A stretch of 64,000 nucleotides of DNA from Eledone cirrhosa (Eukaryota), in assembly GCA_964016885.1 (NCBI GenBank), contig OZ024742.1, positions 66,216,001 to 66,280,000 on the forward strand, read 5' to 3'. The notes beneath the pieces were generated by a model, which was given only the letters and a program-made list of their open reading frames with translations, had not been told where the DNA came from and searched no databases. Each line of letters starts with the position of its first letter. Position 1 is the stretch's first letter. Below, one piece after another: positions 10,991 to 54,976 of the stretch. A program made the position numbers and the translations under genes.

Positions 10991-11037
<47 letters not shown>

Positions 11038-19377: not shown

Positions 19378-19392
19378 ATAATAATAATAATG

Positions 19393-19439
<47 letters not shown>

Positions 19440-19441
19440 TA
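19378..19441. repeat. (TAA)n tract, left boundary of the retroelement cluster
   Basis: Directly visible. Confidence 0.9.
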
Positions 19442-22400
19442 GGGAAGAAGACGCACGAGGTGACGGAGGTCATGAAATCGCTCCCGTAAGTTTTGAATTT
19501 TTAACATATTTAAATCATTTGTGAAATAACAACTCTTAGTACAAATGCTACGTAAAGCACCCGGCTTGAGCCCCAAAAAATTCGGACCCAAAATATATTG
19601 TTATAAGGCTCAAATATTCAAATATTCAACTTTGTACTGTACACTGTATATCCCCCCAAAAAATGGCTATAAATGGAAGAAGAAGACCCCCCCCCCCCCC
19701 TCCTCTCCTCTGGCTACACTATATAGGACAGCTAAACTCACCAACACCAGAAACTAGATACACCACCCACCCCATCATCTGTGTACACTAAACACAACAG
19801 CATTTTCACCTCCACCGCCACCGCTCACTACGGCCATCATTACCACCACTATCCCATCACCGCCGCCACCACCCCTTGACTCCTTCACTGCTGCTGCCAC
19901 CGCTACAGCACCATCACTACAGTAATACGGTCGCATCACCGCCACCACTGCCTCGGTATCGACATCACCACCACCACTGTCTCAGTATCGCCAACGCCGC
20001 CCTCTCCCACTTCTCCCTGCTGGCTGCTACTACTCCCACATTATAGAATCCCTACTACTAACAAAGAGGAAGGCATCAAAATATATAGATAGACTCAAAA
20101 GAAAAAAGAAAAAACAAACAACAAAACCAAAGCAGCACAGCAACAACAGCAAAAAACGAGAAAAACAAACAGAGAAAAACAAAAACAAAAAAAGAAACCC
20201 CCAAAACGTAAAGAAAATAAGAATGAAGAGAGAAGCAGGCGGACGGACAGAGAAGAGGGGGGAAAAAGTAAAACTTAAAAAACAAAAACTAAGTCAGACA
20301 TTCGAATACTACATTACAATGAAACTTATGCTTATTCATTTTTGGGGCCCTTTCTGCCCGTGTGTTTGTTTGTTTATGTGTGTTCGTATACAGCGTCGTG
20401 ATAATGCCACACAAGGGCCAAGTGGGATGGCGGATCCACAGATGGCTATGTAAACATACATTCGCCAATCCTCGATAAGAGTGTTTAAATATCGAACATA
20501 AACAGTTCGAATAACGGTGAAATGGAGACTAGAACGTCATGTGACAGACTCTCACCCAACAGGTGCCCCCTGGCTCAGCAGCAGGAACCTGACTGTCAAC
20601 CAAATACTGCTGATGTTGGAGGAAGAAGAAGAAAGAAAGGGGCCAGAACCAACTGGACGAAAGAATTGAATAGAACTGTTATGCAATGCTACCTGAAAAG
20701 TAACCCCAAGGAGAGGGGCTACAGGAGACGGATGCATAACATCTGGAACGAGATTGGTTTATTTAAATTAGATGAACAAAAATTGGCCGGGCAGGCTCGG
20801 GTAATAAGAACTAATGGGTGGATAAGCGAGCTGGAACTGGAGGAACTGAGCAGAGAGAATGGCTTGGAGATGGCGGGTGTAGTATGCCAGACAAGCGAGC
20901 CGGTGGGAAATGAATGTGAGGAGATCCTGAGAACGGAGGAACCACCCGAAGCAGACAATGATCTGAATACTGAGATAAATAATACCTGGAACAGAGATAC
21001 GGCCACTGAGGAGATGAATGCTGACGGGCTAGGACAAGATTCGGTTGACATCCTAAATCTAGTGGTAGATGAATTGAACAATGATAGTGGGAGACCTATG
21101 AACCTAAGATTTGTAGACAGGAAAAAGTTAAAAGAAACAACAGCTAAGGTAAACAAAGTCATCCCATACCTTGAGGCGAGGAGTCTTCACCAGTGCAACA
21201 ATATCCTCAAAGCAACAGCAAATACGGTGAGGAAACTACTTGGTATAAAAGCGAGAGGAAACAACAGACAAGAAAGAGCAGAGCCGTGGTGGAAGAAGCG
21301 ACTGAGTGGGCAAATCGGGGAAATGAGAAATGACATAGGAAAGCTTGAGTCACTACTGAATGGGACACTAAAAAACATAGGCACTAAACATAGACTGGAA
21401 ATAAAATACAAAACTAGGAGTAAAAAGCTAAATATTATCATAGAGGAATTGAAGCAACGCATTGTAGCAAAGAGTGCCAAAATCAGGCGATACGAGAACA
21501 GAGTCAGTCAGTATAAACAGAACCGCATGTTCGACAACAACCAGAAGATGCTGTTTGGACAGCTTGAGGGGAAAGAAAGAGGCAACGACTTGATCCCTTG
21601 GGCGGAACAAGCTAAAACATTCTGGAGAGGAATATGGGAGCAGGATGTCAGACACAATGCCCAGGCAGGGTGGATTGAGACAGTACAGAGGGAGATCGGT
21701 GAGAAGGCACAACAACAGACTGATTTGAGTGTCACAGTTGAAACTCTTAAGGAGCAAGCCAAAAAACTAACCAACTGGAAATCACCAGGCCCAGATGGTG
21801 TGCAGGGGTATTGGATTAAACATTTAACATCCCTCCACCCGAAGCTGACGGCCATGTTCAATGACTGCTTGGTGTCGGGTGAGGTGCCAGAGTGGTTGAC
21901 AAAAGGTACCACAGTTCTGATAATGAAAGACCGAATCAAGGGTAATGATGTTACCAACTATAGACCTATCACATGTCTGCCCGTAATGTGGAAACTGTTG
22001 ACGAGCATTGTGTCTGAGGAAATCTACCATCACCTCCACACAAACAACTTGTTACCGGACGAACAGAAAGGATGCCGAAAGAAGTCACATGGTACAAAGG
22101 ACCAGTTGCTTATTGATAAGATGGTAATGGGGAATTGCAGGAGGAGACACACTGATCTTGCCATGGGATGGATAGACTACAGAAAGGCATTTGACATGGT
22201 GCCTCATTCCTGGATCACCAAAAGCCTGGAGGTCTTCAGGGTGGCAGATAACATCAGACAGTTGCTGGGCAGGAGTATGGGGTCCTGGGAGACAGAGTTG
22301 ACATCAACTGGAGTATCCTTGGGAAGCGTGAAGATCAAGAGAGGTATCTTCCAGGGAGATAGCCTGTCCCCTCTGTTGTTTGTCCTTGCCCTGATGCCCT

Positions 22401-23990
22401 TGACCATTATGCTGCGAAAAGTGAGAGCAGGATACAAGTTGGGAAGGGGAGAGCTTACCATCAATCACCTCCTCTTCATGGACGATCTTAAGCTCTTCGG
22501 GAAAAGTGAGAAGGAGTTGGATGTGCTTGTTGACACTGTCCGTATTTTCAGCAGTGATATATGTATGCAGTTTGGTATTGGTAAATGTGGAGTCATTGTG
22601 ATGAAGAGGGGTAGGTTGAGCAGAAGTAACGGGATCCAGATACCAACAGGTGAGATGATAAAGGAAATTGACTCTGAGGAAGGATACAAGTATTTGGGCG
22701 TTCTGGAGGCTGATGTCATAAAGAACAAAAAAATGAAGGAATTGTTAAGAACTGAATACATTCGGAGAGTAAGGAGCGTATTGAAGTCACATCTGAACAG
22801 CAGAAATGCCATAAGCGCAGTAAATTCCCGAGCTGTGTCTATTATTAGGTACAGTGCGGGAATTCTGAGATGGAATGTTGCTGAACAAAAAGAAATGGAT
22901 AGGAAGACTAGGAAGCTATTGACTATCTACAACATGTTCCACAAGAGGAGTGATGTCGATAGACTCTACCTAAGGAGATCTGAGGGTGGAAGAGGTCTTA
23001 TCAGCATAGAGGACTGTGTTCAGATGGAGAAAAACAACCTATACAAATACGTGACCTATAGTAAGGAGCCAATGCTCAGAACTGTACTGAAGGAGGGGAC
23101 AGTAGGCCAGGGGATGTCCAAGGAGGAAATAACATCAAGGAGGAAGAGCAGCCTTAAGGGAAAATCCCTTCATAGTACCTTCTTTGAGAAAACTGAACTT
23201 AGAGATCCACAGACATGGAACTGGTTGAGAAGAGGAGACCTCAAAAAGGCTACAGAAGGAATTCTAATGGCTGCGCAGGAGCAGGCCCTCAAAACGAAGT
23301 GGTTGAAGCACCATATCTACAAGGAGGAGGCTAGCCCACTGTGCAGGATCTGTGGAGAGAGAGAGGAGACTGTGGCTCACATTGTGTCCGAGTGTAAACA
23401 CCTAGCCCAGACCCACTATAAGGGCTGGAGACACGATGTGATGGGCAGGGTGATCCACTGGCACCTGTGCAAAGTAAACAATCTACCACATTCTGAGAAA
23501 TGGTATGAGCATAGGCCAGAGGCGGTGATGGAGAACAGTCAGGTGAAGGTGCTGTGGGATTTTAGGATACAGACGGACAAAAAACTGGAACACAATAGAC
23601 CTGACCTGGTGGTTGTGGACAAAGAAAAAAGATCGTGCCTGATTGTGGATGTGGCCTGCCCGTTCGACACGAGAGTGCAAGAGAAGGAGAGGGAGAAACT
23701 TAACCGATACCAGGACCTAAAGTGGGAGGTGAAAAGGATTTGGAACTGCCATGAAGTCAAAGTGATCCCGATTGTCATAGGCGCACTGGGGACTATCTCC
23801 AAAGGTTTCCAGGGATGGTTAAAGAAAATCGGCCCCTTCACGCTTTTTGGAACGCTTCAAAAGGCATGCTTGCTTGGAACAGCAAGAACCCTCCGATACG
23901 TCCTGAATATCTGAGGCTGCAGGTCGTGGCTTGATATTCAATGCAACGGACTTTCCAGTTAACCAACATCAATGACTGAGATTCAAGGAA
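19442..23990 (+). mobile_element. Apparently full-length R4/Dong-clade non-LTR retrotransposon in (TAA)n
   Basis: Single intact RT-RLE ORF and a short 3' UTR followed by TAACAATAAC(AAT)n. The 5' end is inferred from the upstream (TAA)n tract, so the ~1.1 kb leader assignment is less certain. Confidence 0.85.
20522..23914 (+). CDS. R4/Dong-type reverse transcriptase with restriction-like endonuclease, 1130 aa, uninterrupted
   Basis: Motifs KSPGPDG, YRPITCL, DYRKAFD, QGDSLSP, LFMDD, YKYLG, CRICGEREETVAHIVSEC, RHD and RPD..DVACP. Confidence 0.95.
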   Translation: METRTSCDRLSPNRCPLAQQQEPDCQPNTADVGGRRRKKGARTNWTKELNRTVMQCYLKSNPKERGYRRRMHNIWNEIGLFKLDEQKLAGQARVIRTNGWISELELEELSRENGLEMAGVVCQTSEPVGNECEEILRTEEPPEADNDLNTEINNTWNRDTATEEMNADGLGQDSVDILNLVVDELNNDSGRPMNLRFVDRKKLKETTAKVNKVIPYLEARSLHQCNNILKATANTVRKLLGIKARGNNRQERAEPWWKKRLSGQIGEMRNDIGKLESLLNGTLKNIGTKHRLEIKYKTRSKKLNIIIEELKQRIVAKSAKIRRYENRVSQYKQNRMFDNNQKMLFGQLEGKERGNDLIPWAEQAKTFWRGIWEQDVRHNAQAGWIETVQREIGEKAQQQTDLSVTVETLKEQAKKLTNWKSPGPDGVQGYWIKHLTSLHPKLTAMFNDCLVSGEVPEWLTKGTTVLIMKDRIKGNDVTNYRPITCLPVMWKLLTSIVSEEIYHHLHTNNLLPDEQKGCRKKSHGTKDQLLIDKMVMGNCRRRHTDLAMGWIDYRKAFDMVPHSWITKSLEVFRVADNIRQLLGRSMGSWETELTSTGVSLGSVKIKRGIFQGDSLSPLLFVLALMPLTIMLRKVRAGYKLGRGELTINHLLFMDDLKLFGKSEKELDVLVDTVRIFSSDICMQFGIGKCGVIVMKRGRLSRSNGIQIPTGEMIKEIDSEEGYKYLGVLEADVIKNKKMKELLRTEYIRRVRSVLKSHLNSRNAISAVNSRAVSIIRYSAGILRWNVAEQKEMDRKTRKLLTIYNMFHKRSDVDRLYLRRSEGGRGLISIEDCVQMEKNNLYKYVTYSKEPMLRTVLKEGTVGQGMSKEEITSRRKSSLKGKSLHSTFFEKTELRDPQTWNWLRRGDLKKATEGILMAAQEQALKTKWLKHHIYKEEASPLCRICGEREETVAHIVSECKHLAQTHYKGWRHDVMGRVIHWHLCKVNNLPHSEKWYEHRPEAVMENSQVKVLWDFRIQTDKKLEHNRPDLVVVDKEKRSCLIVDVACPFDTRVQEKEREKLNRYQDLKWEVKRIWNCHEVKVIPIVIGALGTISKGFQGWLKKIGPFTLFGTLQKACLLGTARTLRYVLNI

Positions 23991-24024
23991 TAACAATAAC
24001 AATAATAATAATAATAATAATAAT

Positions 24025-27000
24025 GATGATTTCTTTATTGGCCACAAGGGCTGACATCAAGAAAAACATCACAGACGGAACAGGGCGGTACGATGTGGGT
24101 TTTGTGCGTGTAAATATTTTTATTATTTATATAAGAAAGGAAAAAAGGCATAAAACATATATATATATAAACAATAAAATGAAAATTGAAACAATGAAAA
24201 ATTCCCCAATAGGGGGGAAACCTCCGAGGGTTACTCGTGGCGAAAACCACACAAAAGACCACGGCCACCCTGTCTACAAGGGCAAGCGCCCTCTCTCAAT
24301 TTTTCCATCTCTCAAACTACAGACGTATATTCACTCGGACCATTCTCGCTACATTCATCCACCTTTCAACAAACTTGCTAGAAAGTAGCACTTACTTCTC
24401 CACCCTGATTTTCCTCTTCAAGTGAAACTTGAAAAAGTTAATCAGGGATTCGCTGAAGAGGAAAGTGTTTGTCTTTAATCCTTTTAATCTTGTCCACCAC
24501 ACAATCTCTTTCGCCATGGCCACCAGGCAGATGAAAACCGCCTGCACTTCCTCCTCAAAGGAAGACGGCGAGACCATCTGCACAATGGACTCAGTCGACA
24601 ACCGGATCAGTCCCACACGTGACAGCAACTGTTCGACATAGCTCTACAAGTCAGCAATGCTCGGGCACTGAACGAGTGCGTGCACAACGGTTTCATCGCC
24701 ATGCGCGCATCTCGGACAGGCTCGGCTGACAGCACTTCCGTGCCTGTAGAGCTTATCTCGAACCGGCAGCGCTCCCCGGTAGCACTGCCAGGCCAGGAAT
24801 TTTTGGAAGTTATCCATAGGCCCCGGGCTGAAAGTTCTCCGGAAGAGAGCAAGCAGCTGATCTTCTTCGACGCCCAGGATCTCTTCGAGAACGTCGTCGC
24901 TCTTCCACTCCACTAGTCCTCTATAGAACGCCGAGGTGGATGTACCACCGATACTGGTGCCCAACTGGGAGAGGGCAGTGAGCGCCTGGAGACATTCCAG
25001 TTTCCAAGCGCTATCCCTCGGTCTTTTTCTGACCCAGGATTGCAGCTCCGTCAATGAGACGAGCTGTTTGAAAATGTGCCTGGCGAACGGCGTCCACACC
25101 CGTTCACCATCAAGGAAGCACCAGAGATGTCGCAGCCTCAGCGCGTGTTTGCGCATCATCAGCCATGGCATGCCCAGTCCTCCACGCAACGGGTGTTGAC
25201 AGCAGATAGATCGTCTGACCATGGGAGCGCGTCCCTTCCACAAAAAGCGGAAGAGGAGGCGCTCCATTTTGGTGAGAGTTGGGCTAGAGCAAGGGACGAC
25301 GGTGAGGCGGTAGCAGATGACGGATGCGATGTACGCATTCTCCACTTCCGCCCGGCCTTTCAGGGACAGCTTCCTCTCAGCCCATTTCTGGGTGAGGGAG
25401 GCCACCCTGCTCGTCACCTCGTTCCAGTTTTTCTCCATCTGGAGGTCCGGTCCGAACCAGACCCCTAGCAATTTAACCGGTCCGTCCGTCAAAAGCCCAA
25501 CGACGCTGTCGGACGGCATGGACTTGCCTCTCCAGGTGCCTAGCTGCAAGCCCACCGACTTTTCCTGGTTTATCTTTGCTCCTGTCACCGTTTCGTATTC
25601 ATTGAGAGCGGTGCCGAGCATCTGGACGTGTCTGGTGCTCGACACCACCACGGTGACGTCGTCAGCGTAAGCCGACTCGGATTTCCCACACCCTAGTTCG
25701 CGTGGGACGCCCCTCATCACCCCCAGTTTGTGCAGTAACGGCTCGAGAGCCAATACGAACAAGAGGGACGAGAGGGGACAACCCTGGCGGACTGAGCGCA
25801 TGATGCTGAACGGCTGCGACAGGTGACCGTTCACCCTCACAACTGAGCAGATGTCGCTGTACATTGCTGCGATCCAACGCCTGGAAACGGGCCCGAAACC
25901 GGCTGCCTCGAGGACCGCCGCCAGGTACCGATGGTCGACCCTATCGAATGCTTTGGATTGATCCAAGTTGATCAGAGCCCCACCCTTGCCAGGTTCCTTA
26001 ACCACCCTCTCTATGATGTATCGCATGAGGTGGAGGTTGTCGTGTATGGATCTGTCCGGGATCGCGCATGTCTGCACCTCTCCCACCAGACCCTTGACGA
26101 CAAGCGCCAACCTCGTTGCTAACACCTTGGCCAAAACCTTGAACTCTGCGTTTAGCAGAGTTATGGACCTGAAATTATCAATAACATTCCCCTTGTTCGG
26201 GTCTTTTCTCAGCAGCGCCACTGCTCCCCGGCTCACAAAACTGGGAATGCTCCCGTTCTGCTGCCAGTTGCAGTAGACGTCTGCCAAGAGGTCACCGAAC
26301 AAGTCTGGCATAAATGCATAAAGCTCGTAGGGTAGACCATCTAAACCTGGCGATTTACCTCTTGTGCAGTTAGCCATCGCTTCCCGTATTTCACCGGCTG
26401 TTATTGGCTTTTCGCAACACTGTGCTGCGGTCGTCGAGAGCCGAGGCAGTCCGTCGAGGTATGCACTGAAGTCCCGATACGGGCCGCCACCGCTCCCGAA
26501 CAGTTCAGCAAAGTGCTTCTGAAAAGCTTCACACATCCGCTCGGGTTCGAGCATCACGCACCCGTTTTGGTCAGACAAAGACCGAATTGTGGCTTTATTG
26601 CCACGTCGGGCCTCTGCCACCCGGGCCCATTGGACGGCTTTTGTCCCCTCGTGTTTCAGAGCACGCGCTCTAGCTCTGATAACGCAGCCTTCGTGTTTTG
26701 CGTTGAAGAATTGGTCGAGTGCCAATCTCGCCGCAAGCACGTCGGTTGCGATGCCTGTCCTAAACGCCTCTTCTAGCTATTTGACTAGCTCTCCCTGTAC
26801 TCTATTTTCTTCTATCACTACTCCTTTGCTAAACCTAATCGACTCTACTTTAATTGCCCTTTTCAGGGCGAACCACCACCTGTTGTTGACGACCGCTCCC
26901 GTCAACGCCCGCTTAACTAATACGCTAATCCGGTCCCTGTAGGCTTTGCGCGTCGGGAAAGACGCGTTCAGCTTCCAGTAACCAGGCCCTTGTCTATGAA

Positions 27001-27157
27001 GTCTGTCTATGTCGATCTCACAGATCACACATTTGTGGTCTGTGTAGTCGACTATTTTAAATTGTGGACAACTTATACTAGCATTATCTAGTTCCCTGCA
27101 GAATACCCTATCTAGATACGATCTGGATGAGCCGATGCGGTTTGTCCATGTCCACAT
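24025..27157 (-). mobile_element. 5'-truncated Tx1-clade LINE (diverged subfamily with its own 3' UTR) in (TAA)n
   Basis: ORF 24644-26740 is an RT (AYADD, CPRC..HALVQC). It starts mid-APE at MWTWTNR, has a stop near 26777 and a frameshift near 24640, and ends CCTTGTGGCCAATAAAGAAATC(ATT)n. Confidence 0.9.
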
Positions 27158-27175
27158 AATAATAATAATAATAAT

Positions 27176-30100: not shown

Positions 30101-31534
30101 TATTGTTGCTGGGGTTGTTGCTGTTACAGTTTCTTCTGTTGTTGCTGCTACAGTTGTTGCTGACATTTCTGCTGCTGGGGGTGTTGATGGTTTAGTCACT
30201 GGGATCGGTAAAAGAGGTGGCCTTAACCTTTAAGCCTGAGGGCAGAAAGCCCTTAGGTGGGTTCCTTCACCACTAACGACACACCTAGGCCTTCTGCCCT
30301 CGACGATTACGGTGAGATGGCTGCCGTCAGTGAGGTCTATTACCTTTGGGATCTCCTCAATGCTTTTTTGGTCGGTTTGGATCAGGAGCTCCATCCCAGA
30401 TCCGGACCAGTTCTCCTGCTTTTCTTTCGCTATTTCGATTATCTTGGTGTTGGCATCAATGCCGGCGAGGACGGCAGCCATTAGCCAGGGAATTTCGATG
30501 GCAGGTGGAACGTGGGTCACCATGATCTTCACGAGTCTCTGGACACAATAGCTTGGGACGAGTCTGAAGTCGTCACTTCTTAATGAGACCATGGAGTGTT
30601 CTCTGGCCTCCTGTCGTGTTTCAAAGAACACGTCCTCGGTTCCATATTTCTGCCCACGTCTGATGTGGGTTTTCTTTTCCCACATATCCGAAAGCATTTT
30701 TTATTTAGGACTCCGATGCCCATTCCACTCGGCGCGATTTTATGTTAATCGTCTGATAAGACACGGTGCATAGGCGCCGTTGCTCCATTTTATTATGTGT
30801 GTGTGTGGGGGGGGGGGGGGCGAGGCTGACCCTGTACGCATCTTTCTTTACCATTTTTTTGGCTTCTTCTAATTCCTCCTGTGTTACCTGGAATGCTTCG
30901 CACTTTTTTGCTACTCTGGCAAAAGACAGGTTTGTTTTCTTAATTTCATTGTTGCTGCTTGTGTTTATCGTTATTTTTGTTATTGTTAATTTTAGTTTCA
31001 GTTGTGGTGGTGATGGCGTCAGTGGTGTTCGATGTGGAAGAGTTCATTTTGGCTGAATTCGTTTCGATATCACGAGATAATTTATTTTTTTCTTTTGTTT
31101 CTGTTGTCGCTGTGGTGGTGGTGGGGTTGGCGGCTTCAACACCTGCAGTCATTGGTAATGGCGGGAAATGAATGTCTGCCTGAGACAAATTTAAAACATT
31201 GCTGCTGCTATTATTTTTAGTGTTGGCAAACGTAATAATATTTATAATGGTGGTGTCGGTGTGAGGTGTTAGTTTGTGAGGAAGGCTCTCAGCTACTGGG
31301 TTCAGCTGTGAGTCGGCCATGATTTTTCAAAGAAATTTTTTTTTTTGTTTGATAATTATAAAAGTTTAAATTTTGGGCTCAAGGCCCCAATCTTTTTGAG
31401 TGTCCTTTTCAGAAAACAATGTATGTGCACTTATATACAGTTAACAATAACAATTTTCCTATAATGGCAATTTAAACAACTGAAAATAAACCTTTGCGGA
31501 GCTCACGATAATACGATTGACTACGTTGGTCGCC
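27176..31534 (-). mobile_element. Tx1-clade LINE with intact 5' end, type-C ORF1, and a ~1.4 kb internal deletion removing the APE domain
   Basis: The 5' end GGCGACC matches 32323. The ORF1 end is joined directly to RT-proximal CCGATAACAGCCGCTG at ~29385, and a second deletion at ~27775 removes the zinc finger. Confidence 0.9.
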
Positions 31535-31538
31535 AATA

Positions 31539-31569
<31 letters not shown>

Positions 31570-31666
31570 TTATTATTATTATTATTATAACAACAACAAC
31601 AACCCTAATTCTTTAGAGGGTAAAAAGTTGCTAAACATATAATACAAATCATGTTGTATTATAATG

Positions 31667-37644: not shown

Positions 37645-37666
37645 ATTATTATTATTATTATTATTA

Positions 37667-37940
37667 GGGCGGTGGATTGGCAGTATTGGGAGAGGGTCGG
37701 ACGCCATGCTTTGACGTATAGAGTTACGGCCCTTGCCATTATTATTATTATTAGGGCGGTGGATTGGCAGTATTGGGAGAGGGTCGGACGCCATGCTTTG
37801 ACGTATAGAGTTACGGCCCTTGCCATTCTGAGTTCAAATACCGCTGAGGTTAACTTTGCCTTTTATCCTTACGGGGTCGATAAAATAAAGTACCAGTAAT
37901 GCACTGGTTAATTGCTGGCCTTGTGCTTAACGAAGAAACA
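37667..37940 (+). mobile_element. SINE with an 87-bp tandem duplication of its head
   Basis: GGGCGGTGGATTGGCAG..GCCATT occurs at 37667 and 37754; the second copy continues into a full SINE. Confidence 0.85.
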
Positions 37941-37976
<36 letters not shown>

Positions 37977-38191
37977 GAATGCCATGGTTGACGGAGGCTC
38001 GGCTCTGTAAGGTATAGTAATTTTTAACCGTTAAAACAATTGTAAATTGTTTAAAACTTGAACCAAATTGTTGATAAAGACACCCTCCTCCTCGTGAGAG
38101 GGGTCTTTCTGTCCGTTATTTGGCCCTTCGGGGTTAAATAATCAGTTATTGGGGTTTTGTACCCAAAATTTCATTTTAAACAAAAAACAAC

Positions 38192-40285
38192 ATGGCTACG
38201 AAAAAGAAATTTCATACGTCACTCCCACTCATTCCGTCTTCTTCTTCCTCAATCATCACTACAGCAGAGAGAAGATTGTCTCTCTCCCTCCCTTCTTTAA
38301 ATGTGTCTCTCTCCCTCCCTTCTCTTTCGCAAGTGACGAAAGAAAAGAAAAGTCTCGTGCAAAGCGTGCAAGGTTTCTCCACGACGACGACGACAGCGAC
38401 GAAACAGGTGTGCGGGAAATACGAAAACCCAGTTCATTCGTCTGACGTCAGGAATAATAACAGTAGCAGCCGTAATAACAACAGCAACAGTGACAATGAA
38501 AACAACAGTAGCAGCCGCAACAGCATCACCAGCAGCATAAACAACAACAGCATTAGCAGCAGCAACACCAACAACAACCACAGCAACAGCGGCGGAGGCA
38601 GTAGTCGTAGTACCTGCAGCAACAACAAAAGTACCAGCAGCTCTGACGACAGCAACAGCAGAGAAAAACCAATCTCATTTGCAGGTATTGCGAAAAACTT
38701 GGAAACAATCCTCATAACAAATGAGGAATTAGAGGAAGCGAAGAAGATGGTGACAAAGAACGGACACCGAGCAATCTGCAAGGCAGCGAAAAATTTTTTC
38801 GAAACCCAAGAGCACTGTACGGTCACGTACCGTACAGTAAGTACAAAATCCCGTAGGGTGGAAAGAGCCACAGAGGCCCAAATACAAAAAGCCTTGGGGT
38901 CTGTGTGGCAGCGGAAAACGCACATCACCCGAGGCAAAAAATATGCCACCGTAGACGTACTTTTTGCCACACCCCAGGAGGCAAAGGCCCAATCAGTAGT
39001 GACCCTAAGGAGCGAGGAAATGGTGTTGGTGCCCTCCTACTGTGGGCAAAAAATTGTGAGGGTCAAACTGACCCACGTCCCCCCCGGAATGACCCCTTCT
39101 TGGCTGGCCGCGTCTGTCCTCGTCGGAATCGAGGACAAAACAACTGTACTGCAAGTACAGAAAAAAGTAAGAGAAGATTGGGTCGGCTCCTCCATTGAGA
39201 TGCTAATCCAAACCAACCAGGAGTGCATCGAAGCTATCCCGGATGTGATAGACTTCGATAACGGCACTCAACTGCCCATAAGTGTTGAGGGCAAACGCCC
39301 GAAATGCTTTCGCTGTGGATCGAAGACTCACCTCAGGGCCTTCTGCAACGAGAAGACCCTGAGAAAGGAGAAAACCCCCCTCCTTCCGAATCCGGCTCCA
39401 CGGCTACCAGCAACAGGACAAGCGGCAACCAGGAACGATAGGCCCGTGGCACCCATACCCACTCCACGGAAATCAAAAACAGCAGCAGCAGTGGAAATAC
39501 TAACAACAACAACAGCAATACCAAATGCAGCTGCAACAGAGACTCCAGTGCAAACATCACCAACAACAACAAGTGAAAGAGTGGAGTTGGTACCCCTCCC
39601 CGACCTCACAGAATCAGACATGGAGTGTGAGGTGGGAGAGAGATGGCAAAAGGTCGTAAGAAGGCACAAACGCAGAAGCAGCGCATCGTCGCCTTTGAAA
39701 AGGGAGGAAAGAAATGAGAAAAGGGTAAAGTCTACTGCAAAGAGACCCACAGCAGCAACAACACCAACACCATCACCACCCACACTAGCGCCACCATCAC
39801 CACCGGCGACAACCCCACCGCCAACAACACCTTCAACACCACCACCACAAGCACCAACATCGCAAACACAACAACAAAACACACACACCCAGCAACAACG
39901 ACAAGAAAATAGCAGAACCACACCCCACCCCCAGAAAAACAAATGCACGGCAATAAATACACACAACAAGAAACTAATGACTTACATAATTGAACACACA
40001 GACATTTCACAACAGGACTACATAATACCAGCACCAATCAAAACGCCAACTAACATAAGACTGCTAAAAATAGCACAGAAACAATACACAAATATTAAAA
40101 CGAAATTCCCCAACGCAGTTGGTGATTTCAGGGACCTAGGAGGAACCATCAATCGAAGAGTATACTCAGACATTCTCTTAGAAGAGCCGACGACCAGCCG
40201 AAGGGACGATTCAACGGTCCCTTCACCAGACGATCAAGTGAAAAGGGATGTAAAAACCATCCCTCCTCTACCAAAAGTACGGTAA
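38192..40285 (+). CDS. Tx1 ORF1 protein, 697 aa
   Basis: Ser/Asn low-complexity N-terminus, CFRCGSKTHLRAFC zinc knuckle, basic patch and Pro/Thr-rich region; located directly upstream of ORF2. Confidence 0.88.
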   Translation: MATKKKFHTSLPLIPSSSSSIITTAERRLSLSLPSLNVSLSLPSLSQVTKEKKSLVQSVQGFSTTTTTATKQVCGKYENPVHSSDVRNNNSSSRNNNSNSDNENNSSSRNSITSSINNNSISSSNTNNNHSNSGGGSSRSTCSNNKSTSSSDDSNSREKPISFAGIAKNLETILITNEELEEAKKMVTKNGHRAICKAAKNFFETQEHCTVTYRTVSTKSRRVERATEAQIQKALGSVWQRKTHITRGKKYATVDVLFATPQEAKAQSVVTLRSEEMVLVPSYCGQKIVRVKLTHVPPGMTPSWLAASVLVGIEDKTTVLQVQKKVREDWVGSSIEMLIQTNQECIEAIPDVIDFDNGTQLPISVEGKRPKCFRCGSKTHLRAFCNEKTLRKEKTPLLPNPAPRLPATGQAATRNDRPVAPIPTPRKSKTAAAVEILTTTTAIPNAAATETPVQTSPTTTSERVELVPLPDLTESDMECEVGERWQKVVRRHKRRSSASSPLKREERNEKRVKSTAKRPTAATTPTPSPPTLAPPSPPATTPPPTTPSTPPPQAPTSQTQQQNTHTQQQRQENSRTTPHPQKNKCTAINTHNKKLMTYIIEHTDISQQDYIIPAPIKTPTNIRLLKIAQKQYTNIKTKFPNAVGDFRDLGGTINRRVYSDILLEEPTTSRRDDSTVPSPDDQVKRDVKTIPPLPKVR

Positions 40286-40320
40286 GTGGTCTTTCCCATC
40301 TTTTCCACTCTATTTTAAAC

Positions 40321-43300
40321 ATGACCTCACTCAGAATAGGCAGCATAAATGCGCGTGGCTTGGGGTCGTCATGGAAGCAGGGTCACCTGCTCAACGACCT
40401 CAGGTCACTAAACATAGATGTAGTGGCCATCAGCGAGACCAGAATCTCCGAAGCACGGGCCTTCGCACCGATCTTCGGCGGCTACGATGTGTACGCATCT
40501 CCCAGCCGTCCTGGATCCGGTGGAGGAGTTGCTGTACTTTTTCGGAGAGGTTTGGATCTCGCCATACGGGCCATCTTCCTGGACCCAGAGGGTAAGCTGG
40601 TGGTGCTGGACGTGACCAGCGGAGACGGGCAAGCTTTCAGGCTAGTGGCCGTCTATGCCCCGACAGGAGCAGGGCGGCCTGATTTCTTCCGGCGTCTGGA
40701 GACCTTTCTTGGAACGTCGCGCTCTTTAGTGTTAGTGGGCGACTGGAACGGGATCTTAGATGCACGCTGGGACTGTGTGGGATTAGCGGATAGGGGTGGA
40801 GGGTGCAAGAGCCTCACCAACCTGCTCAGGCGTTTTGAACTGTCTGACAGGTACCGATTGGATTTCCCGAATGTGCCAATGTGGACTTGGACAAACCGCA
40901 TAGGGTCATCCAGATCATATCTAGATAGAGTATTTTTGTAGGGAAATAGATAGGTCTAGCATAGGCTGTCCACAATTCAAGATAGTCAGCTACACGGACC
41001 ACAAATTCGTGATCTGTGTGCTTGACTTAGATAGGCTTCATAGACGAGGACCCGGCTACTGGAATCTAAACGCGTCCTTACCAGCGCGCAAGGCCTACAG
41101 AGACCAGATTAGCGAACTAGTTAAGCGGGCGTTGACGGGGGCCATCGTCAACAACAAGTGGTGGTTTGCTCTGAAAAGAGCGATTAGAATAGAATCGATT
41201 AGGTTTAGTAAGGCTTTAGCAATAGAGAAAAATAGAGCAGAGGGAGAACTAGTTAGAAAATTAGACGAGGCGCTTAGCAAAGGCATTGCGACCGACGTGC
41301 TTGCGGCGAAATTGGCCCTTGACCAATTCTTCAATGCAAAGCACGAAGGCTGCGTTGTCAGAGCTAGGGTGCGTGCTCTCAGAGACGAGGGGACGAAAGC
41401 CGTTCAATGGGCCCGAGTGGCGGAGGCGCGTCGTGGCAACAAAGCCACGATCCGGTCTTTGGTGGACCACGACGGGCGCATGCTACTCGATCCCGGGCAA
41501 ATGTGTGAAGCTTTTCAGCGACACTTCACTCAGCTGTTCGGGGGCAGCGGGGGGCCGGGTAGAGGGATGGACTTTAGTGTCTACCTCGACGGACTGCCGC
41601 GGCTCTCGGCCACTGAGGCGAAGTGTTGCGAAAAGCCGATAACAGCCGCTGAAGTACGGGAGGCAATGACTGGCTGCACAAGGGGTAAATCGCCTGGTTT
41701 GGATGGTCTGCCCTATGAACTTTACGTACAGATGCCAGACTTGTTCGGAGGCCTCTTGGCGGACGTCTACTGCAACTGGCAACAGAACGGGAGAATTCCC
41801 AGTTCTGTGAGCCGAGGAGCGGTGGCACTGCTGAGAAAGGATCCGAACAAGGGGGATAACATAGACAATTTCCGGCCCATAACTCTGCTAAACACAGAGT
41901 TTAAGATTTTGGCCAAGGTGCTAGCAAAGAGGTTGGCGCTTGTCGTTGGTGGTCTGGTGGGAGAGGCGCAGACATGCGCCATTCTCGACAGATCCATCCA
42001 CGACAACCTCCACCTCATGCGATACATCGTAGAGAGGGTAGCTAGGGAACCTGGCACGGGTGGGTCCTTGATCAATTTAGATCAGTCGAAAGCTTTCGAT
42101 AGGGTCAACCATCGTTACCTAGCGGCAGTCCTGAGGGCGGCTGGCTTTGGGCCCGTCTTCAGAGGCTGGATCGCTGCCATGCACAGCGACATCTGCTCTG
42201 TGGTGAGAGTGAACGGTCACCTGTCGGAACCGTTCAACATCATGCGCTCGGTCCGCCAAGGATGTCCCCTCTCGTCCCTCCTGTACGTATTGACTCTCGA
42301 GCCATTACTGCACAAACTGGAGACGTTGAGGGGGGTCCCGCGCGAACTAGGATGCGGAAGATCCGTGTCAGCATATGCGGACGATGTCACCGTAGTGGTG
42401 TCGAACGCCAAACACATCGAGGCGATCGGCACTACACTAAGAGAATACGAAGCGGTGACAGGAGCAATGATCAACCAGGAAAAGTCAGTGGGCCTGCAGC
42501 TCGGCACCTGGAGAGGCAGGTCCATGCCGTCCAACAGCGTCGTCGGGCGCTGGACGGACGGACCGGTTAAATTGCTAGGGGTCTGGTTCGGTCCGGACCT
42601 CCAGACGGACAAAAACTGGGACGAGGTGACGAGCAGGGTGGCTTCTCTCACCCAGAAATGGGCGGAGAGGAAGCTATCCCTGAAAGGTCGAGCGGAGGTG
42701 GCTAACGCGTACATCGCGTCTGTCATCTGCTACCGCCTAACCGTCGTACCTTGTCCTAAGCCTCGCCTGACTGCGCTGGAGCGTTTGCTCTTTCGCTTTT
42801 TGTGGAAGGGACGTGCTCCGATGGTCAGGCGGTCCATCTGTTGTCAACACCCGCTACGTGGAGGGCTGGGCATGCCGTGGCTGATGATGCGCAGGCACGC
42901 GCTCAGGCTACGACATCTCCACCTCTTCCTCGACGGTGATCAGGTGTGGTCGCCGTTTGCTAGACGCGTTTTTCCCCAGCTCGTTTCCTTGACGGAGCTG
43001 CAGTCTTGTGTCAAGCGAAGACCGAGAGGGAGCGCCTGGAGACTGGAATGTCTTCAGGCGCTCACAGCCCTCGACCAATCGGGCAATGTGATCGGTGGAA
43101 ACTCCACCTCGGCGTTCTATAGAGGATTAGTGGAGGGGAAGAGCGACGACGTACTTGGGGAAACTCTAGGCGTCGACGAAAATCAACTAGCCAATCTCTT
43201 CGGAAGAACTTTCGGGCCAGGGCCTATGGACAACTTCCAGAAATCTCTGGCCTGGCAGTGCTACCGAGGAGCCTTGCCAGTTCGGGATAAACTCTACAGG

Positions 43301-43741
43301 CATGGAGGTGCCGTCAGCCGGGCATGTCCGAGATGCGCGCAGGGCGACGAAACCGCCCTGCACGCACTCGTCCAGTGTCCGAAAATTGCTGACTTGTGGG
43401 TTTATGTCGAACACCTGCTGTCGCGTTTAGGACGGATCCAGCTATCATCTGAGTCTATCGTGAGGATTGCCCCGCCCTCCTCCTTTAGCCGGGAAGGGCA
43501 GGCAGTTTTTATCTGTCTGGTGGCCATGGCGAAAGAGATAGTATGGTGGACACGTTTGAAAGGGCTGAAGACGAGCACTTACCTCTTCGGTGATGCTCTG
43601 ATTGACTTTTTCAAATTTCATTTGAAAAGGAAAATCAGAGTAGAGAAGGAAGTGCTCTCTTCCCAGCATTTTGTTGAAAGATGGGTGAGAGAAGCAAGAA
43701 TGGCCCGAGTGAATGGGCCGACTCTGAGTATATATCTGTAA
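40321..43741 (+). CDS. Tx1 ORF2 (APE endonuclease-RT-CCHC) with a single +1 T frameshift at 40933-40937
   Basis: Motifs NARGL, SETR, VYAP, GDWN, YLDRVF, then TDH, KSPGLDG, FRPITLLN, RQGCPLS, AYADD and CPRC..HALVQC. This copy has 5 T where the sister copy (~34726) has 4. Confidence 0.9.
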
Positions 43742-44002
43742 ACTAAAGGTGGAAAACTGGGAGAGGGCACTTGCCTTGGTGGTCAGGGTCATTGTGGCTT
43801 TTTACTGGGCTTTCTCCACAAATGTCCCTCCGAAGTCTCCCCCCCTATTGGGGAATTTTTCATTGTTATTTTCATTGTTATTTTTGTTACATCCTCTGTT
43901 TTTGTTTTTTTACACGCAGAAATGCCCATTTGTACCGTCCTGCATTGTCCTGCACTGTCCTTAATGTCTACTTTATGTAAACCCTTGTGGTTAATAAAGA
44001 AA

Positions 44003-44004
<2 letters not shown>

Positions 44005-44061
<57 letters not shown>

Positions 44062-44071
44062 GTTATTGTTA
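44005..44071. repeat. (TTA)n tract shared tail-to-tail by Tx1 and Dong
   Basis: Directly visible; mirror of 23991-24024. Confidence 0.9.
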
Positions 44072-46963
44072 TTCCTTGAATCTCAGTCATTGATGTTGGT
44101 TAACTGGAAAGTCCGTTGGATTGAATATCAAGCCACTACCTGCAGCCTCAGATATTCAGGACGTATCGGAGGGTTCTTGCTGTTCCAAGCAAGCATGCCT
44201 TTTGAAGCGTTCCAAAAAGCGTGAAGGGGCCGATTTTCTTTAACCATCCCTGGAAACCTTTGGAGATAGTCCCCAGTGCGCCTATGACAATTGGGATCAC
44301 TTTGACTTCATGGCAGTTCCAAATCCTTTTCACCTCCCACTTTAGGTCCTGGTATCGGTTAATTTTCTCCCTCTCCTTCTCTTGCACTCTCGTGTCGAAC
44401 GGGCAGGCCACATCCACAATCAGGCACGATCTTTTTTCTTTGTCCACAACCACCAGGTCAGGTCTATTGTGTTCCAGTTTTTTGTCCGTCTGTATCCTAA
44501 AATCCCACAGCACCTTCACCTGACTGTTCTCCATCACCGCCTCTGGCCTATGCTCATACCATTTCTCAGAATGTGGTAGATTGTTTACTTTGCACAGGTG
44601 CCAGTGGATCACCCTGCCCATCACATCGTGTCTCCAGCCCTTATAGTGGGTCTGGGCTAGGTGTTTACACTCGGACACAATGTGAGCCACAGTCTCCTCT
44701 CTCTCTCTCTCCACAGATCCTGCACAGTGGGCTAGCCTCCTCCTTGTAGATATGGTGCTTCAACCACTTCGTTTTGAGGGCCTGCTCCTGCGCAGCCATT
44801 AGCATTCCTTCTGTAGCCTTTTTGAGGTCTCCTCTTCTCAACCAGTTCCATGTCTGTGGATCTCTAAATTCAGTTTTCTCAAAGAAGGTACTATGAAGGG
44901 ATTTTCCCTTAAGGCTGCTCTTCCTCCTTGATGTTATTTCCTCCTTGGATATCCCCTGGCCTACTGTCCCCTCCTTCAGTACAGCTCTGAGCATTGGCTC
45001 CTTACTATAGGTCACGTATTTGTATAGGTTGTTTTTCTCCATCTGAACACAGTCCTCTATGCTGATAAGACCTCTTCCACCCTCAGATCTCCTTAGGTAG
45101 AGTCTATCGACATCACTCCTCTTGTGGAACATGTTGTAGATAGTCAATATCTTCCTAGTCTTCCTATCCATTTCTTTTTGTTCAGCAACATTCCATCTCA
45201 GAATTCCCGCACTGTACCTAATAATAGACACAGCTCGGGAATTTACTGCGCTTATGGCATTTCTGCTGTTCAGATGTGACTTCAATACGCTCCTTACTCT
45301 CCGAATGTATTCAGTTCTTAACAATTCCTTCATTTTTTTGTTCTTTATGCCATCAGCCTCCAGAACGCCCAAATACTTGTATCCTTCCTCAGAGTCAATT
45401 TCCTTTATCATCTCACCTGTTGGTATCTGGATCCCGTTACTTCTGCTCAACCTAACCCTCTTCATCACAATGACTCCACATTTACCAATACCAAACTGCA
45501 TACATATATCACTGCTGAAAATACGGACAGTGTCAACAAGCACATCCAACTCCTTCTCACTTTTCCCGAAGAGCTTAAGATCGTCCATGAAGAGGAGGTG
45601 ATTGATGGTAAGCTCTCCCCTTCCCAACTTGTATCCTGCTCTCACTTTTCGCAGCATAATGGTCAAGGGCATCAGGGCAAGGACAAACAACAGAGGGGAC
45701 AGGCTATCTCCCTGGAAGATACCTCTCTTGATCTTCACGCTTCCCAAGGATACTCCAGTTGATGTCAACTCTGTCTCCCAGGACCCCATACTCCTGTCCA
45801 GCAACTGTCTGATGTTATCTGCCACCCTGAAGATCTCCAGGCTTTTGGTGATCCAGGAATGAGGCACCATGTCAAATGCCTTTCTGTAGTCTATCCATCC
45901 CATGGCAAGATCAGTGTGTCTCCTCCTGCAATTCCCCATTACCATCTTATCAATAAGCAACTGGTCCTTTGTACCACGTGACTTCTTTCGGCATCCTTTC
46001 TGTTCGTCCGGTAACAAGTTGTTTGTGTGGAGGTGATGGTAGATTTCCTCAGACACAATGCTCGTCAACAGTTTCCACATTACGGGCAGACATGTGATAG
46101 GTCTATAGTTGGTAACATCATTACCCTTGATTCGGTCTTTCATTATCAGAACTGTGGTACCTTTTGTCAACCACTCTGGCACCTCACCCGACACCAAGCA
46201 GTCATTGAACATGGCCGTCAGCTTCGGGTGGAGGGATGTTAAATGTTTAATCCAATACCCCTGCACACCATCTGGGCCTGGTGATTTCCAGTTGGTTAGT
46301 TTTTTGGCTTGCCCCTTAAGAGTTTCAACTGTGATACTCAAATTAGTCTGTTGTTGTGCCTGCTCACCGATCTCCCTCTGTACTGTCTCAATCCACCCTG
46401 CCTGGGCATTGTGTCTAACATCCTGCTCCCATATTCCTCTCCAGAATGTTTTAGCTTGTTCCGCCCCAGGGATCAAGTCGTTGCCTCTTTCTTTCCCCTC
46501 AAGCTGTCCAAACAGCATCTTCTGGTTGTTGTCGAACATGCGGTTCTGTTTATACTGACTGACTCTGTTCTCGTATCGCCTGATTTTGGCACTCTTTGCT
46601 ACAATGCGTTGCTTCAATTCCTCTATGATAATATTTAGCTTTTTACTCCTAGTTTTGTATTTTATTTCCAGTCTATTTTTAGTGCCTATGTTTTTTAGTG
46701 TCCCATTCAGTAGTGACTCAAGCTTTCCTATGTCATTTCTCATTTCCCCGATTTGCCCACTCAGTCGCTTCTTCCACCACGGCTCTGCTCTTTCTCGTCT
46801 GTTGTTCCCTCTCGCTTTTATACCAAGTAGTTTCCTCACCGTATTTGCTGTTGCTTTGAGGATATTGTTGCACTGGTGAAGACTCCTCGCCTCAAGGTAT
46901 GGGATGACTTTGTTTACCTTAGCTGTTGTTTCTTTTAACTTTTTCCTGTCTACAAATCTTAGG

Positions 46964-46965
<2 letters not shown>
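44072..46965 (-). mobile_element. 5'-truncated second copy of the R4/Dong element
   Basis: Nearly identical to 21101-23990. A 4-nt (GA)n expansion at ~44700 splits it into ORFs 44665-46839 and 44148-44714. Confidence 0.95.

Positions 46966-47047
<82 letters not shown>
46966..47047. repeat. (TTA)n tract, right boundary of the cluster; an uninterrupted (TTA)n lies at 47404-47476
   Basis: Directly visible. Confidence 0.9.
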
Positions 47048-47399: not shown

Positions 47400-47476
<77 letters not shown>

Positions 47477-54880: not shown

Positions 54881-54976
54881 CCTATACACACATACAAACC
54901 CACACACACATATGTATATATATAAAAATAAATATATATACATATATATATATATGCATATATATATATATATATA

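Follow-up and report, generated by a model that had tools for sequence, protein, structure and literature searches.

Organization of the retroelement array

The 64-kb stretch of DNA analysed here (the window), which probably comes from an octopod, contains a 27.7-kb array of retroelements (19378-47047), in which nine copies of three kinds of element lie in a mirror-image arrangement. The array as a whole is probably best explained by independent, oriented insertions into one microsatellite reading first TAA and then TTA, with a possible snap-back event at its centre.

The elements follow the order Dong(+), Tx1(-), Tx1(-) | Tx1 stub(+), SINE(+), Tx1(+), SINE(+), Tx1(+), Dong(-); the mapped coordinates of all nine copies confirmed this order and these strands, which had been proposed in the initial annotation of the sequence. 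Its claim that the tracts read TAA to the left of the centre and TTA to the right also held. There are 14 perfect TAA/TTA tracts of at least 5 units in the window, 12 of them inside the array, and these read TAA in 4/4 cases to the left of 31569|31570 and TTA in 8/8 cases to the right. The tracts of the array include the outer left (TAA)n tract of about 20 units (19378-19439, +), a (TAA)6 junction tract (27156-27175, +), an (ATT)19 junction tract common to the 3' ends of the elements T4 and Dong R (44005-44061, +) and the outer right (TTA)27 tract (46965-47047, +), behind which a unique-looking flank begins with TTGTAC.

Dong-type copies are oriented in the TAA sense, and Tx1-type copies and SINEs in the ATT sense. 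This rule is obeyed by 8/8 elements if the stub is set aside (0.5^8=0.004 by simple arithmetic, a figure which overstates independence, since tracts are common to neighbouring elements). Seventeen of the 18 element ends adjoin a tract of the expected polarity, counting a 5' end with a single ATT (SINE S1), and the sole exception is the 5' end of the stub, which adjoins an inverted copy of the left flank (a', described below) and not ATT. Not every long tract is filled, as the array is followed, 360 bp to its right, by an empty (TTA)24; a similar empty TAA..TTA switch occurs at 47362-47475.

Dong-type elements

Dong L (20331-24000, +) is an RLE-type LINE with an uninterrupted 1141-codon frame (20489-23914) containing RT, CCHC, RHD and PD..D motifs. 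This single ORF bears a non-LTR reverse transcriptase (RVT_1, E 2.5e-23), the closest relatives of solved structure are R2 proteins (E 2e-30), and its relatives align starting at residues 1-7. The C-terminal motifs (C952-x2-C-x8-H-x4-C, RHD981 and PD1038..D) we take to be the finger and the PD-(D/E)xK endonuclease of the Dong/R4 clade, while a search of Dong L for an APE domain gave no Exo_endo_phos match. The RT matches are unnamed or ‘uncharacterized’ proteins, and the tree included no named Dong, NeSL or Hero. The element ends in AATAACAATAAC, followed by (AAT)8.

Dong R (44062-46964, -) is 5'-truncated, corresponds to positions 21102-24000 of Dong L and carries a frameshift caused by a 4-bp insertion. 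The sense strand has (TAA)n at 4/4 ends of the two copies, provided that the segment preceding Dong L (segment X; 19441-20330, +, right boundary approximate) is counted in the left insertion. This segment consists of an AT-rich leader followed by C/A-rich and A-rich low-complexity sequence, and a composition shift near 20340 marks its right limit. Judged from the sequence, it may represent the 5' UTR of Dong or else a Tx1-like 5' end that was captured: its comparison with the T4 5' end gave z=5.0 against shuffles, yet an unrelated tile scores higher, and no protein match with T4 ORF1 was found. If segment X is a Tx1 5' end, its (+) orientation after TAA breaks the orientation rule and counts against the model proposed below, unless it was carried with the Dong RNA. 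An HDV-like ribozyme has been shown at the 5' end of Bombyx mori Dong (PMC3774820); at either candidate 5' end here, there was no Rfam match at E<=1 and none by a strict pattern that was run without a positive control.

Tx1-type elements and the associated SINE

T1 (24028-27155, -) is a 5'-truncated Tx1-type LINE of a divergent subfamily (about 82% to T4) with 3 in-frame stops. T2 (27176-31534, -) has an intact 5' end, 3 stops and two deletions, one in the endonuclease region (about 950 bp) and another of 142 bp. The 193-bp 3' stub (31659-31851, +) differs from T2 by 4.8% and has the terminal AAGAAAGC in common with it. T3 (32323-37644, +), with several deletions and frameshifts, has an intact 5' end of the same subfamily as that of T2.

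T4 (37977-44004, +) is the youngest of these elements and is near-intact. Its ORF1 (38192-40285) encodes a CCHC zinc knuckle (C376-x2-C-x4-H-x4-C); nothing relevant was found for it in Pfam, and the look-alikes in the Atlas, CCHC and ZCCHC3-type RNA-binding clusters (0.90-0.93), are taken as a lead only. ORF2, broken by one frameshift near 40933, matches Exo_endo_phos (E 6e-14), RVT_1 (E 3e-28) and zf-RVT (E 9e-8), and the endonuclease resembles L1-type endonuclease structures (E 6e-6). In an RT tree that included no named Tx1, T1, T2 and T4 cluster together with support (99/93), close to an Argonauta protein; the nearest named relative is an Argonauta hians protein (68%). ATT tracts adjoin 9/10 ends of the five Tx1 copies of the array, and T0 (2781-8568), a sister Tx1 outside the array with the same 3' end, is flanked on both sides by (TATC)n.

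Two SINEs belong to the array: S1 (31855-32022, +), which lacks about 18 nt at its 5' end and is linked to the stub via one ATT, and the full-length S2 (37753-37940, +), with a Tx1-like 22-nt 3' end. A-box/B-box-like motifs were read by eye in the head of S2; ARAGORN predicted 0 genes, and Rfam gave no tRNA match. The SINE and Tx1 3' ends are identical at 15-17 of the last 22 nt. An identity of 17/22 to the Tx1 end is reached by 8 of the 128,008 22-mers of the window, namely 6 Tx1 ends and 2 SINE ends, and an identity of 15/22 by 16 (6 Tx1, 5 SINE and 5 unrelated). No 3' stem-loop common to both was evident (z -0.03 to -2.4). The likeness of the termini makes Tx1 the probable mobiliser of the SINE, acting in trans.

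The near-full-length dispersed SINEs outside the array carry, in 3/3 cases, duplications beginning with ATTAT on both sides. These are 7-12 bp long: ATTATTATTTTG (16903-17090), ATTATGTAGA (15754-15934) and ATTATTG (12174-12353). ATT follows the 3' end in 5/6 dispersed SINEs, a count that excludes one copy truncated at its 3' end and an internal fragment. The ATTAT duplications, together with the location of T0 inside (TATC)n, support strand-specific targeting.

Independence and age of the arms

The arms measure 12.2 kb (left) and 15.5 kb (right) and differ in content, even if 9.7 of the 12.2 kb of the left arm have an inverted homologue in the right arm. In the RT core, T1 diverges from T2, T3 and T4 by 15.6-17.8%, and the values for T2-T3, T2-T4 and T3-T4 are 5.9%, 4.3% and 5.3%, respectively; Dong L and Dong R differ by 0.79%. 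An inverted segmental duplication, for which colinear arms, uniform divergence and shared breakpoints would be expected, was considered and rejected: divergence ranges over 0.8-18%, and content and deletions differ. The arms are thus independent insertions, and the earlier statement that they are not one duplication is borne out by the divergence, subfamily and deletions of each copy.

Over 1798 sites, T2, T3 and T4 carry 29, 43 and 9 private substitutions, respectively (T4 versus T2, p=0.002). The private changes of T2 and T3 comprise 53 non-synonymous or stop versus 19 synonymous changes. The coding differences between the two Dongs, which point to independent decay, are 3 synonymous and 18 non-synonymous; by copy, 10 differences were tentatively assigned as derived in Dong L and 7 in Dong R, and 1 was unclear. 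The core of the array is made up of Tx1s that are older and decayed (T1-T3, private change about 1.6-2.9%), with T4 and both Dongs (<=0.5%) outside it, a pattern which has a chance of 4/35=0.11 by arithmetic and in which the age of T1 is confounded with subfamily divergence.

Centre of the array and local duplications

Besides segment X, the array holds several features that the initial annotation did not mention, i.e. a central 89-bp inverted flank copy, two duplications of 45-87 bp and a Penelope-like filler. That annotation gave no reason for the polarity switch, a question on which the inverted flank copy bears.

The switch, (TAA)9|(TTA)6, forms a perfect palindrome whose arms measure 19 bp each (31543-31588, centre 31569|31570). 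It overlaps a' (31570-31658, -), an inverted copy, with 3 mismatches, of 89 bp comprising the left flank and the start of the TAA tract (19308-19396). The source in the flank is segment a (19308-19377, +), 70 bp ending in (GTT)4, which blastn aligned with 31658-31589 at 97%. The copy ends after 89 bp and does not include the left flank beyond; its junction with the stub is without clear microhomology.

The second duplication consists of (ATT)8 and the first 24 bp of T3 (first copy 32023-32070, +), and its two copies of 45-48 bp are separated by a 231-bp filler (32071-32301, -). A minus-strand frame of the filler (32075-32260) has a Penelope-like counterpart at 63202-63387 (tblastn within the window, 40% identity, E 6e-11); Pfam, protein search and the Atlas gave no support for this assignment. 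The third, of 87 bp and without filler, comprises (ATT)5 and 72 bp of the SINE head (37651-37737, +), and its tandem copy is 100% identical. All three local duplications, including that of 89 bp, begin in an ATT tract and extend downstream in the ATT sense, and two of them are direct.

Proposed origin and alternatives

We consider it very likely that the array arose by oriented targeting and stacking, a model whose evidence base is one locus in one assembled 64-kb window. The founding empty site would have been flank-a(TAA)n(TTA)m-TTGTAC. Each family likely cuts one strand, and the direction of an element would then track the polarity of the tract. Near the switch, a Tx1 may have inserted and halted after 193 nt, leaving the stub, the cDNA end of which would then have used the opposite strand of the adjacent left flank as template for 89 bp (‘snap-back’). 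As this copy ended in TAA repeats, it could have annealed to an ATT overhang, giving rise to a' and the perfect palindrome. Such a step implies that the 12-kb left arm arrived later; we give it about an even chance of being the origin of a'. Snap-back 5' junctions that copy nearby target DNA in antisense are described in PMC11371274, a precedent that concerns, as presented there, an engineered R2 system and not Tx1. Tx1, with its APE endonuclease and carrying the SINE via the common 22-nt 3' end, would have kept inserting by target-primed reverse transcription, as would Dong with its restriction-like endonuclease. Every insertion presumably duplicated a few repeat units, turning a single tract into many.

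With one fixed direction per kind of element and a strand switch in the middle of the repeat, the symmetry is mechanical and requires no function; it is likely a side effect of targeting that is already known, not a novel device. The initial annotation had envisaged a strand-specific landing pad that grows by itself. Targeting and target regeneration are supported by 17/18 element ends, 3/3 dispersed SINEs and T0 in TATC, but the self-reinforcing growth is not, given the single locus and the empty (TTA)24.

An unlikely alternative accepts the same stacking and reads a' as the distal half of a target-site duplication of 89 bp, with a later inversion of the interior of the array. The stub would have inserted (-) into the TAA tract, and the recombination behind the inversion would have involved either the two inverted Dongs or a TAA and a TTA tract. 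The geometry of the three local duplications is that of target duplication, 18/18 element ends would then follow the rule, an inner inversion leaves the mirror rule intact, and exceptionally long target duplications are on record. R9 is reportedly one element with such a duplication. However, two events are required, the duplications of dispersed SINEs reach merely 7-12 bp, and the derived changes along Dong L and Dong R show no clear switch (low power). The longest stretch of full identity measures 110 nt for an inverted pair of Tx1s versus 107 nt for a direct pair, and no conversion tract or crossover signature of arm-to-arm recombination was found, both at low power. It is likewise doubtful that bipolar TAA|TTA microsatellites assemble themselves into invertible cassettes, with two unrelated LINE clades of opposite polarity surrounding them with inverted repeats of several kb, Tx1 sometimes making 45-90-bp target duplications and this array having already flipped once, an event that would have converted an 89-bp direct duplication into a'. 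If the central flank copy does record a past inversion, such arrays would connect active LINEs with rearrangement in a lineage noted for the reshuffling of its genomes (PMC13282606); if this held generally, inversions in octopod genomes would arise from them recurrently and predictably.

It is very improbable that the tracts are nothing more than 3' tails which the elements supplied, and that the array accumulated passively, with no sequence targeting, in a region that tolerates insertions. Every inner tract is indeed the 3' neighbour of some element, and 3'-side tracts of LINEs can lengthen by slippage; TE hotspots are also present in Octopus vulgaris (PMC13282606). This reading is largely refuted within the window, as ATT motifs stand at the 5' side of 3/3 dispersed SINEs, within the duplication, TATC flanks T0 on either side, the truncated 5' end of Dong R adjoins (TAA)27, and no element cuts into the body of another, the filler excepted. 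An assembly artefact (fold-back read or head-to-head haplotypes) or one inverted segmental duplication is also highly unlikely: the perfect AT-rich palindrome and the 99%-identical terminal Dongs are hard for assemblers, and the third duplication is 100% identical, but the arms are unlike in content, length, subfamily and deletions, with 0.8-18% divergence, and a' has 3 mismatches and ends after 89 bp without continuing into the left flank. The assembly may nevertheless show the part enclosed by the two Dongs in the wrong orientation.

We find it hardly credible that selection retained the array as a source of dsRNA or piRNA against active Dong and Tx1 families, even with inverted homology over 9.7 kb of the 12.2-kb left arm, recent activity of Dong-R4 and L1-Tx1 in O. 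vulgaris (PMC13282606) and the antisense Dong RNA that Tx1 read-through would produce, since the decay of T2 and T3 (53 versus 19 changes) resembles that of neutral DNA, the central 5'-intact Tx1s face outwards, so that read-through from both arms would be same-sense and form no arm-to-arm duplex, and the mechanical account of symmetry already suffices.

Comparison with known systems

Each ingredient of the oriented-insertion model is known. Taken together, they amount to a simple rule: a short, strand-switching microsatellite yields tens of kb of inverted repeats without any duplication. It predicts that orientation follows tract polarity, that array sizes are heavy-tailed and that mirror arrays occur at switch sites only.

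The closest known system is that of SART1 and TRAS1 in the (TTAGG)n telomeric repeats of B. mori. There, two LINE families share a simple repeat as target and insert in opposite directions, which the endonuclease determines; as described in PMC7265360, a few repeat units suffice. In contrast, the array described here occupies an interstitial TAA/TTA microsatellite, a strand switch within the tract produces the mirror, and the families come from unrelated clades (RLE-type versus APE-type), with a SINE in addition.

Dong is described as targeting TAA, and Kibi and Koshi as targeting TC and TTC (PMC3812793). Dong L resembles the Dongs (R4 clade) of B. mori, Anopheles and Biomphalaria in its single ORF, RT, C-terminal CCHC and PD..D motifs and sense-strand TAA flanks; as a difference, its ORF is preceded by the unassigned 0.9-kb segment X. 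The Rfam and pattern searches detected no HDV-like ribozyme at the candidate 5' ends. The Tx1 elements share with Kibi (TC), Koshi (TTC) and the crocodilian Tx1 (TTCC/TTTC), as characterized in PMC4494074, two ORFs, a zinc-knuckle ORF1, an APE endonuclease-RT-zf ORF2 and microsatellite on both sides. They differ in targeting (ATT)n in the array and (TATC)n in the case of T0, neither of which is among the targets named there. The locus suggests two Tx1 families, one directed at ATT and the other at TATC, and a Tx1 that is the probable partner of an abundant SINE; none of these was found in the literature searched, which did not extend to Repbase and subscription journals.

According to the same account (PMC4494074), Tx1 mobilises SINEU, often in tandem, and SINEU and Tx1-Mar of crocodilians have, like the SINE and Tx1 of the array, a common target and tandem stacking. 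The link described there is the common target, to which the present array adds a common 22-nt 3' terminus, and the SINE head is tRNA-like by eye, unlike that of the snRNA-derived SINEU. Repeated insertion at a regenerated target also builds arrays in the case of Utopia in U2 genes (PMC4640811) and of MoTeRs in fungal telomeres, interstitial MoTeR tracts being described as starting points of rearrangements (PMC7367193). As portrayed in these sources, Utopia and MoTeR arrays are single-family or single-polarity, whereas the present array is bipolar and combines several clades.

Architecture of the retroelement pile

The pile, a 27.7-kb mirror-image array at window positions 19378-47047, consists of nine retroelement copies parted by TAA/TTA tracts. 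Self-comparison, ORF listing and Pfam searches reproduced the order and strands proposed in the initial annotation: Dong L (20331-24000, +) and the Tx1-type LINEs T1 (24028-27155, -) and T2 (27176-31534, -) on the left; a Tx1 3' stub (31659-31851, +), the SINE S1 (31855-32022, +), T3 (32323-37644, +), the SINE S2 (37753-37940, +), T4 (37977-44004, +) and Dong R (44062-46964, -) on the right. Around the centre (31569/31570) the sequence reads as a perfect palindrome, each arm being 19 bp long, and inverted homologues on the right cover about 9.7 kb of the 12.2-kb left arm. Twelve of the window's 14 perfect TAA/TTA tracts of at least 5 units fall inside the pile and, as had been noted for the junctions, they read TAA to the left of 31570 (4/4) and TTA to the right (8/8).

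The view that the arms are not a single duplication also held, since RT-core divergence is uneven across the copies (15.6-17.8% between T1 and the others, 4.3-5.9% among T2, T3 and T4, 0.79% between Dong L and Dong R) and deletions are specific to each copy, which rules out one inverted duplication as the source. The pile is best explained by the known strand-specific targeting of a microsatellite that changes strand. A TAA..TTA polarity switch without insertion, (TAA)5(CAA)4..(TTA)24, lies 300-430 bp to the right (47331-47476) and serves as a model for the ancestral site; the empty (TTA)24 at 47404 speaks against saturation of the tracts.

Identity and coding state of the LINEs

The labels Dong and Tx1 follow domain layout and target, the tree having been built without any named reference. 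Dong L contains an open frame of 1141 codons with RT, CCHC, RHD and PD..D motifs; among solved structures, R2 proteins are its best relatives. Alignments with database relatives start at residues 1-7, which shows that the ORF is full length. The frame may nevertheless not be active, because position 22089 encodes His in Dong L, and Arg in Dong R and 37 of 40 relatives. One database record, P0004 (1710 aa), is a tandem fusion of two Dong-type ORFs, which suggests tandem Dong insertions elsewhere. A further RLE-type LINE is represented by two old 3' portions (126-1058, +; 12596-13643, -), which are 82% alike, share 28-32% protein identity with Dong L and have no flanking TAA tracts.

Segment X (19441-~20330), the 0.9 kb upstream of the Dong L ORF, resembles a Tx1 ORF1 in composition and is weakly similar to the 5' end of T4. 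This match (z=5.0 against 200 shuffles) was the best among the X comparisons of that run and ranked second among ~1,136 non-self tiles, one unrelated tile scoring higher; no protein-level match was found between segment X and T4 ORF1. Dong L measures 3.7 kb without X and 4.6 kb with it, and the mean of ~4.2 kb for recently active Dong-R4 copies of Octopus vulgaris (Table 1 of PMC13282606) falls in between. Segment X is either a native long 5' UTR or a captured Tx1-like leader.

In T4, ORF1 carries a zinc knuckle, and ORF2, which combines APE endonuclease, RT and zf-RVT domains, is broken by one frameshift; the nearest named relative of ORF2 is a protein of Argonauta hians (68%). Both Dong-R4 and L1-Tx1 are recorded as recently active in O. 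vulgaris (PMC13282606, Table 1). Taken with the Argonauta relative, this makes an octopod host probable. The ORF2 DNA of T4 is ~95% identical to that of T2 and T3, while its 5' end differs and the ORF1 proteins are only ~40-55% identical (regions compared: T4 38192-40285, T3 32526-34500, T2 29387-31326). Judged from these alignments, exchange of a 5' module is probable. At neither candidate 5' end of Dong were HDV-like ribozymes detected by Rfam, or by our own pattern search, run without a positive control. Elsewhere in the window, 11392-11463 (+) resembles the hammerhead ribozyme HH9 (E 1.8e-6), its 38.6 bits falling short of the gathering score, 52.

Probable strand-specific targeting

The initial annotation had proposed that strand-specific targeting sets the orientation of each element. 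The nine elements of the pile have 18 ends, and 17 of these adjoin a tract of the expected polarity, with Dong lying in the sense of TAA, and Tx1 and SINE in the sense of ATT. The sole exception is the 5' end of the stub; the 5' end of S1 has just one ATT. As neighbours share the inner tracts, copies outside the pile provide a better test. All three dispersed near-full-length SINEs are flanked by target duplications (12, 10 and 7 bp) that start with ATTAT on both sides, and ATT directly follows the 3' end in five of six dispersed SINEs, counts from which one 3'-truncated copy (60406) and one internal fragment (15217) are excluded.

T0, a decayed full-length sister Tx1 (element 2781-8568) in a (TATC)n tract (2695-8612), is ~70% identical to the pile Tx1s and has the same terminus. 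It is bordered by (TATC)n on both sides, and 10 bp of its own 3' end (TAAAGAAACA) plus (TATC)3 are copied just upstream of its 5' end. T0 points to a second target specificity within the same Tx1 lineage. The ATTAT duplications of the SINEs and the TATC on both sides of T0 imply that the motif pre-exists in the target and is duplicated by insertion. Within this window, these 5'-side motifs largely rule out tracts that are merely tails added without targeting and, together with the ends inside the pile, support the proposal. Stacking also occurs on a small scale: three tandem SINEs are joined through ATT motifs (15754-16313), and another SINE has inserted at the terminal ATT of an older copy (16903-17263). 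Oriented targeting with stacking is very probable.

In each of four SINE copies compared, 14-17 of the 22 terminal nucleotides agree with the Tx1 end. Of the 128,008 22-mers in the window, those matching this end at 17/22 or better are six Tx1 ends and two SINE ends, with no others; lowering the cut-off to 15/22 gives 6 Tx1, 5 SINE and 5 unrelated sequences. The shared 3' end and ATT target make Tx1 the likely carrier of the SINE, although folding gave no evident stem-loop common to the two.

Age and independent insertion

Over 1798 shared ORF2 sites, T2 has 29 private changes, T3 has 43 and T4 has 9 (7 synonymous). Those of T2 and T3 comprise 53 non-synonymous or stop changes versus 19 synonymous, a pattern as in neutral decay. 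T1 has 105 private changes, a number confounded by subfamily divergence, as well as 3 stops. Dong L and Dong R differ by 18 non-synonymous and 3 synonymous changes; polarised against 40 relatives, 10 of them look derived in Dong L and 7 in Dong R, with 1 ambiguous, several calls depending on few residues. At the rate of 0.0036 per million years quoted in PMC13282606, if it fits this host, the age of T2 and T3 would be roughly 4-7 million years and that of the Dongs ~1 million. The core LINEs are older than the edge ones, but such a pattern has a chance of 4/35 (p ~0.11, seven LINEs), and the idea of an outward age gradient was dropped.

Origin of the centre

The segment a' (31570-31658) is an 89-bp inverted copy of 19308-19396, at the left flank (a), with 3 mismatches and a blunt end at the stub. 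Two further local duplications occur: (ATT)7-8 with the first 24 bp of T3 is present on either side of a 231-bp filler, and (ATT)5 plus 72 bp at the head of S2 is repeated in tandem, the copies being 100% identical. All three begin in an ATT tract and extend downstream. None of them, nor segment X, figures in the initial annotation.

The ancestral site may have read a(TAA)n(TTA)mTTGTAC, resembling the switch at 47362-47475, which is empty. Near the ancestral polarity switch, insertion of a Tx1 would have halted after 193 nt, leaving the stub, whose cDNA end could have copied the opposite strand of the neighbouring flank and finished in TAA repeats to which the ATT overhang could anneal, yielding a'. 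Snap-back junctions of this kind have been described for R2 insertions in an engineered system (PMC11371274), and we give this origin of a' about an even chance. Copying of the adjacent left flank would imply that the stub event predates growth of the left arm, and the a/a' divergence of 3.4% (3 of 88 sites; 95% interval ~0.7-9.6%) is in keeping with the age of T2 and T3. Each subsequent insertion would have duplicated its target, with its direction set by the tract.

The main rival, possible though unlikely, keeps the same stacking and takes a' for one half of a target duplication of 89 bp that was turned round by a flip of the inner segment. All 18 element ends would then obey the polarity rule, and the geometry agrees with that of the other two local duplications; however, two events are required and no recombination trace is detectable, a comparison of the arms, of low power, giving no signal of conversion or crossover. 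This account and snap-back predict an identical empty allele. As for the stub being a local copy of the T2 3' end (circular permutation), one site sides with T2 and one with T4.

The end of a' and the right flank share the 5-bp match TTGTA, which might reflect a target duplication but does not exceed what chance would give. The minus strand of the filler matches 63202-63387 (40%, E 6e-11), and this in-window match is its support, as Pfam, a 5.8-billion-protein search and Atlas returned nothing for the filler's family. The matched piece belongs to a fragment (62679-63747, -) which we take to be Penelope-like from its motifs, Pfam giving 0 matches there. A second Penelope-like fragment (52084-52985, -) has a weak GIY-YIG match (E 0.0055).

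Precedents and consequences

Several components are already known: Dong insertion into TAA (PMC3812793), Tx1 families in TC/TTC repeats (PMC3812793; PMC4494074), arrays built in tandem where the target is regenerated (PMC4640811), rearrangements that start from MoTeR-derived tracts (PMC7367193) and opposite-direction insertion, described for SART1 and TRAS1 (PMC7265360) and paralleled by Dong versus Tx1 and SINE in the pile. Our literature searches turned up neither a bipolar pile of several clades, nor a Tx1 that targets ATT or TATC, nor an octopod SINE with a Tx1 tail, each of which Repbase, subscription journals or supplements (for Tx1 targets, e.g. those of PMC4494074) may hold.

Since T2 and T3 face outward from the centre, their read-through would yield RNA of the same sense from either arm, and arm-to-arm dsRNA would require a transcript crossing 31570. 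The Dongs, 99.2% identical over 2.9 kb, could recombine, inverting ~20 kb while preserving the mirror rule.

Fold-back structures are common in the window. Other palindromic or inverted-repeat structures lie at 10690-11031 (83%), 54971-55332 (98%) and 61242-61414 with 63828-64000 (97%), and two of these three adjoin TA-rich microsatellites.
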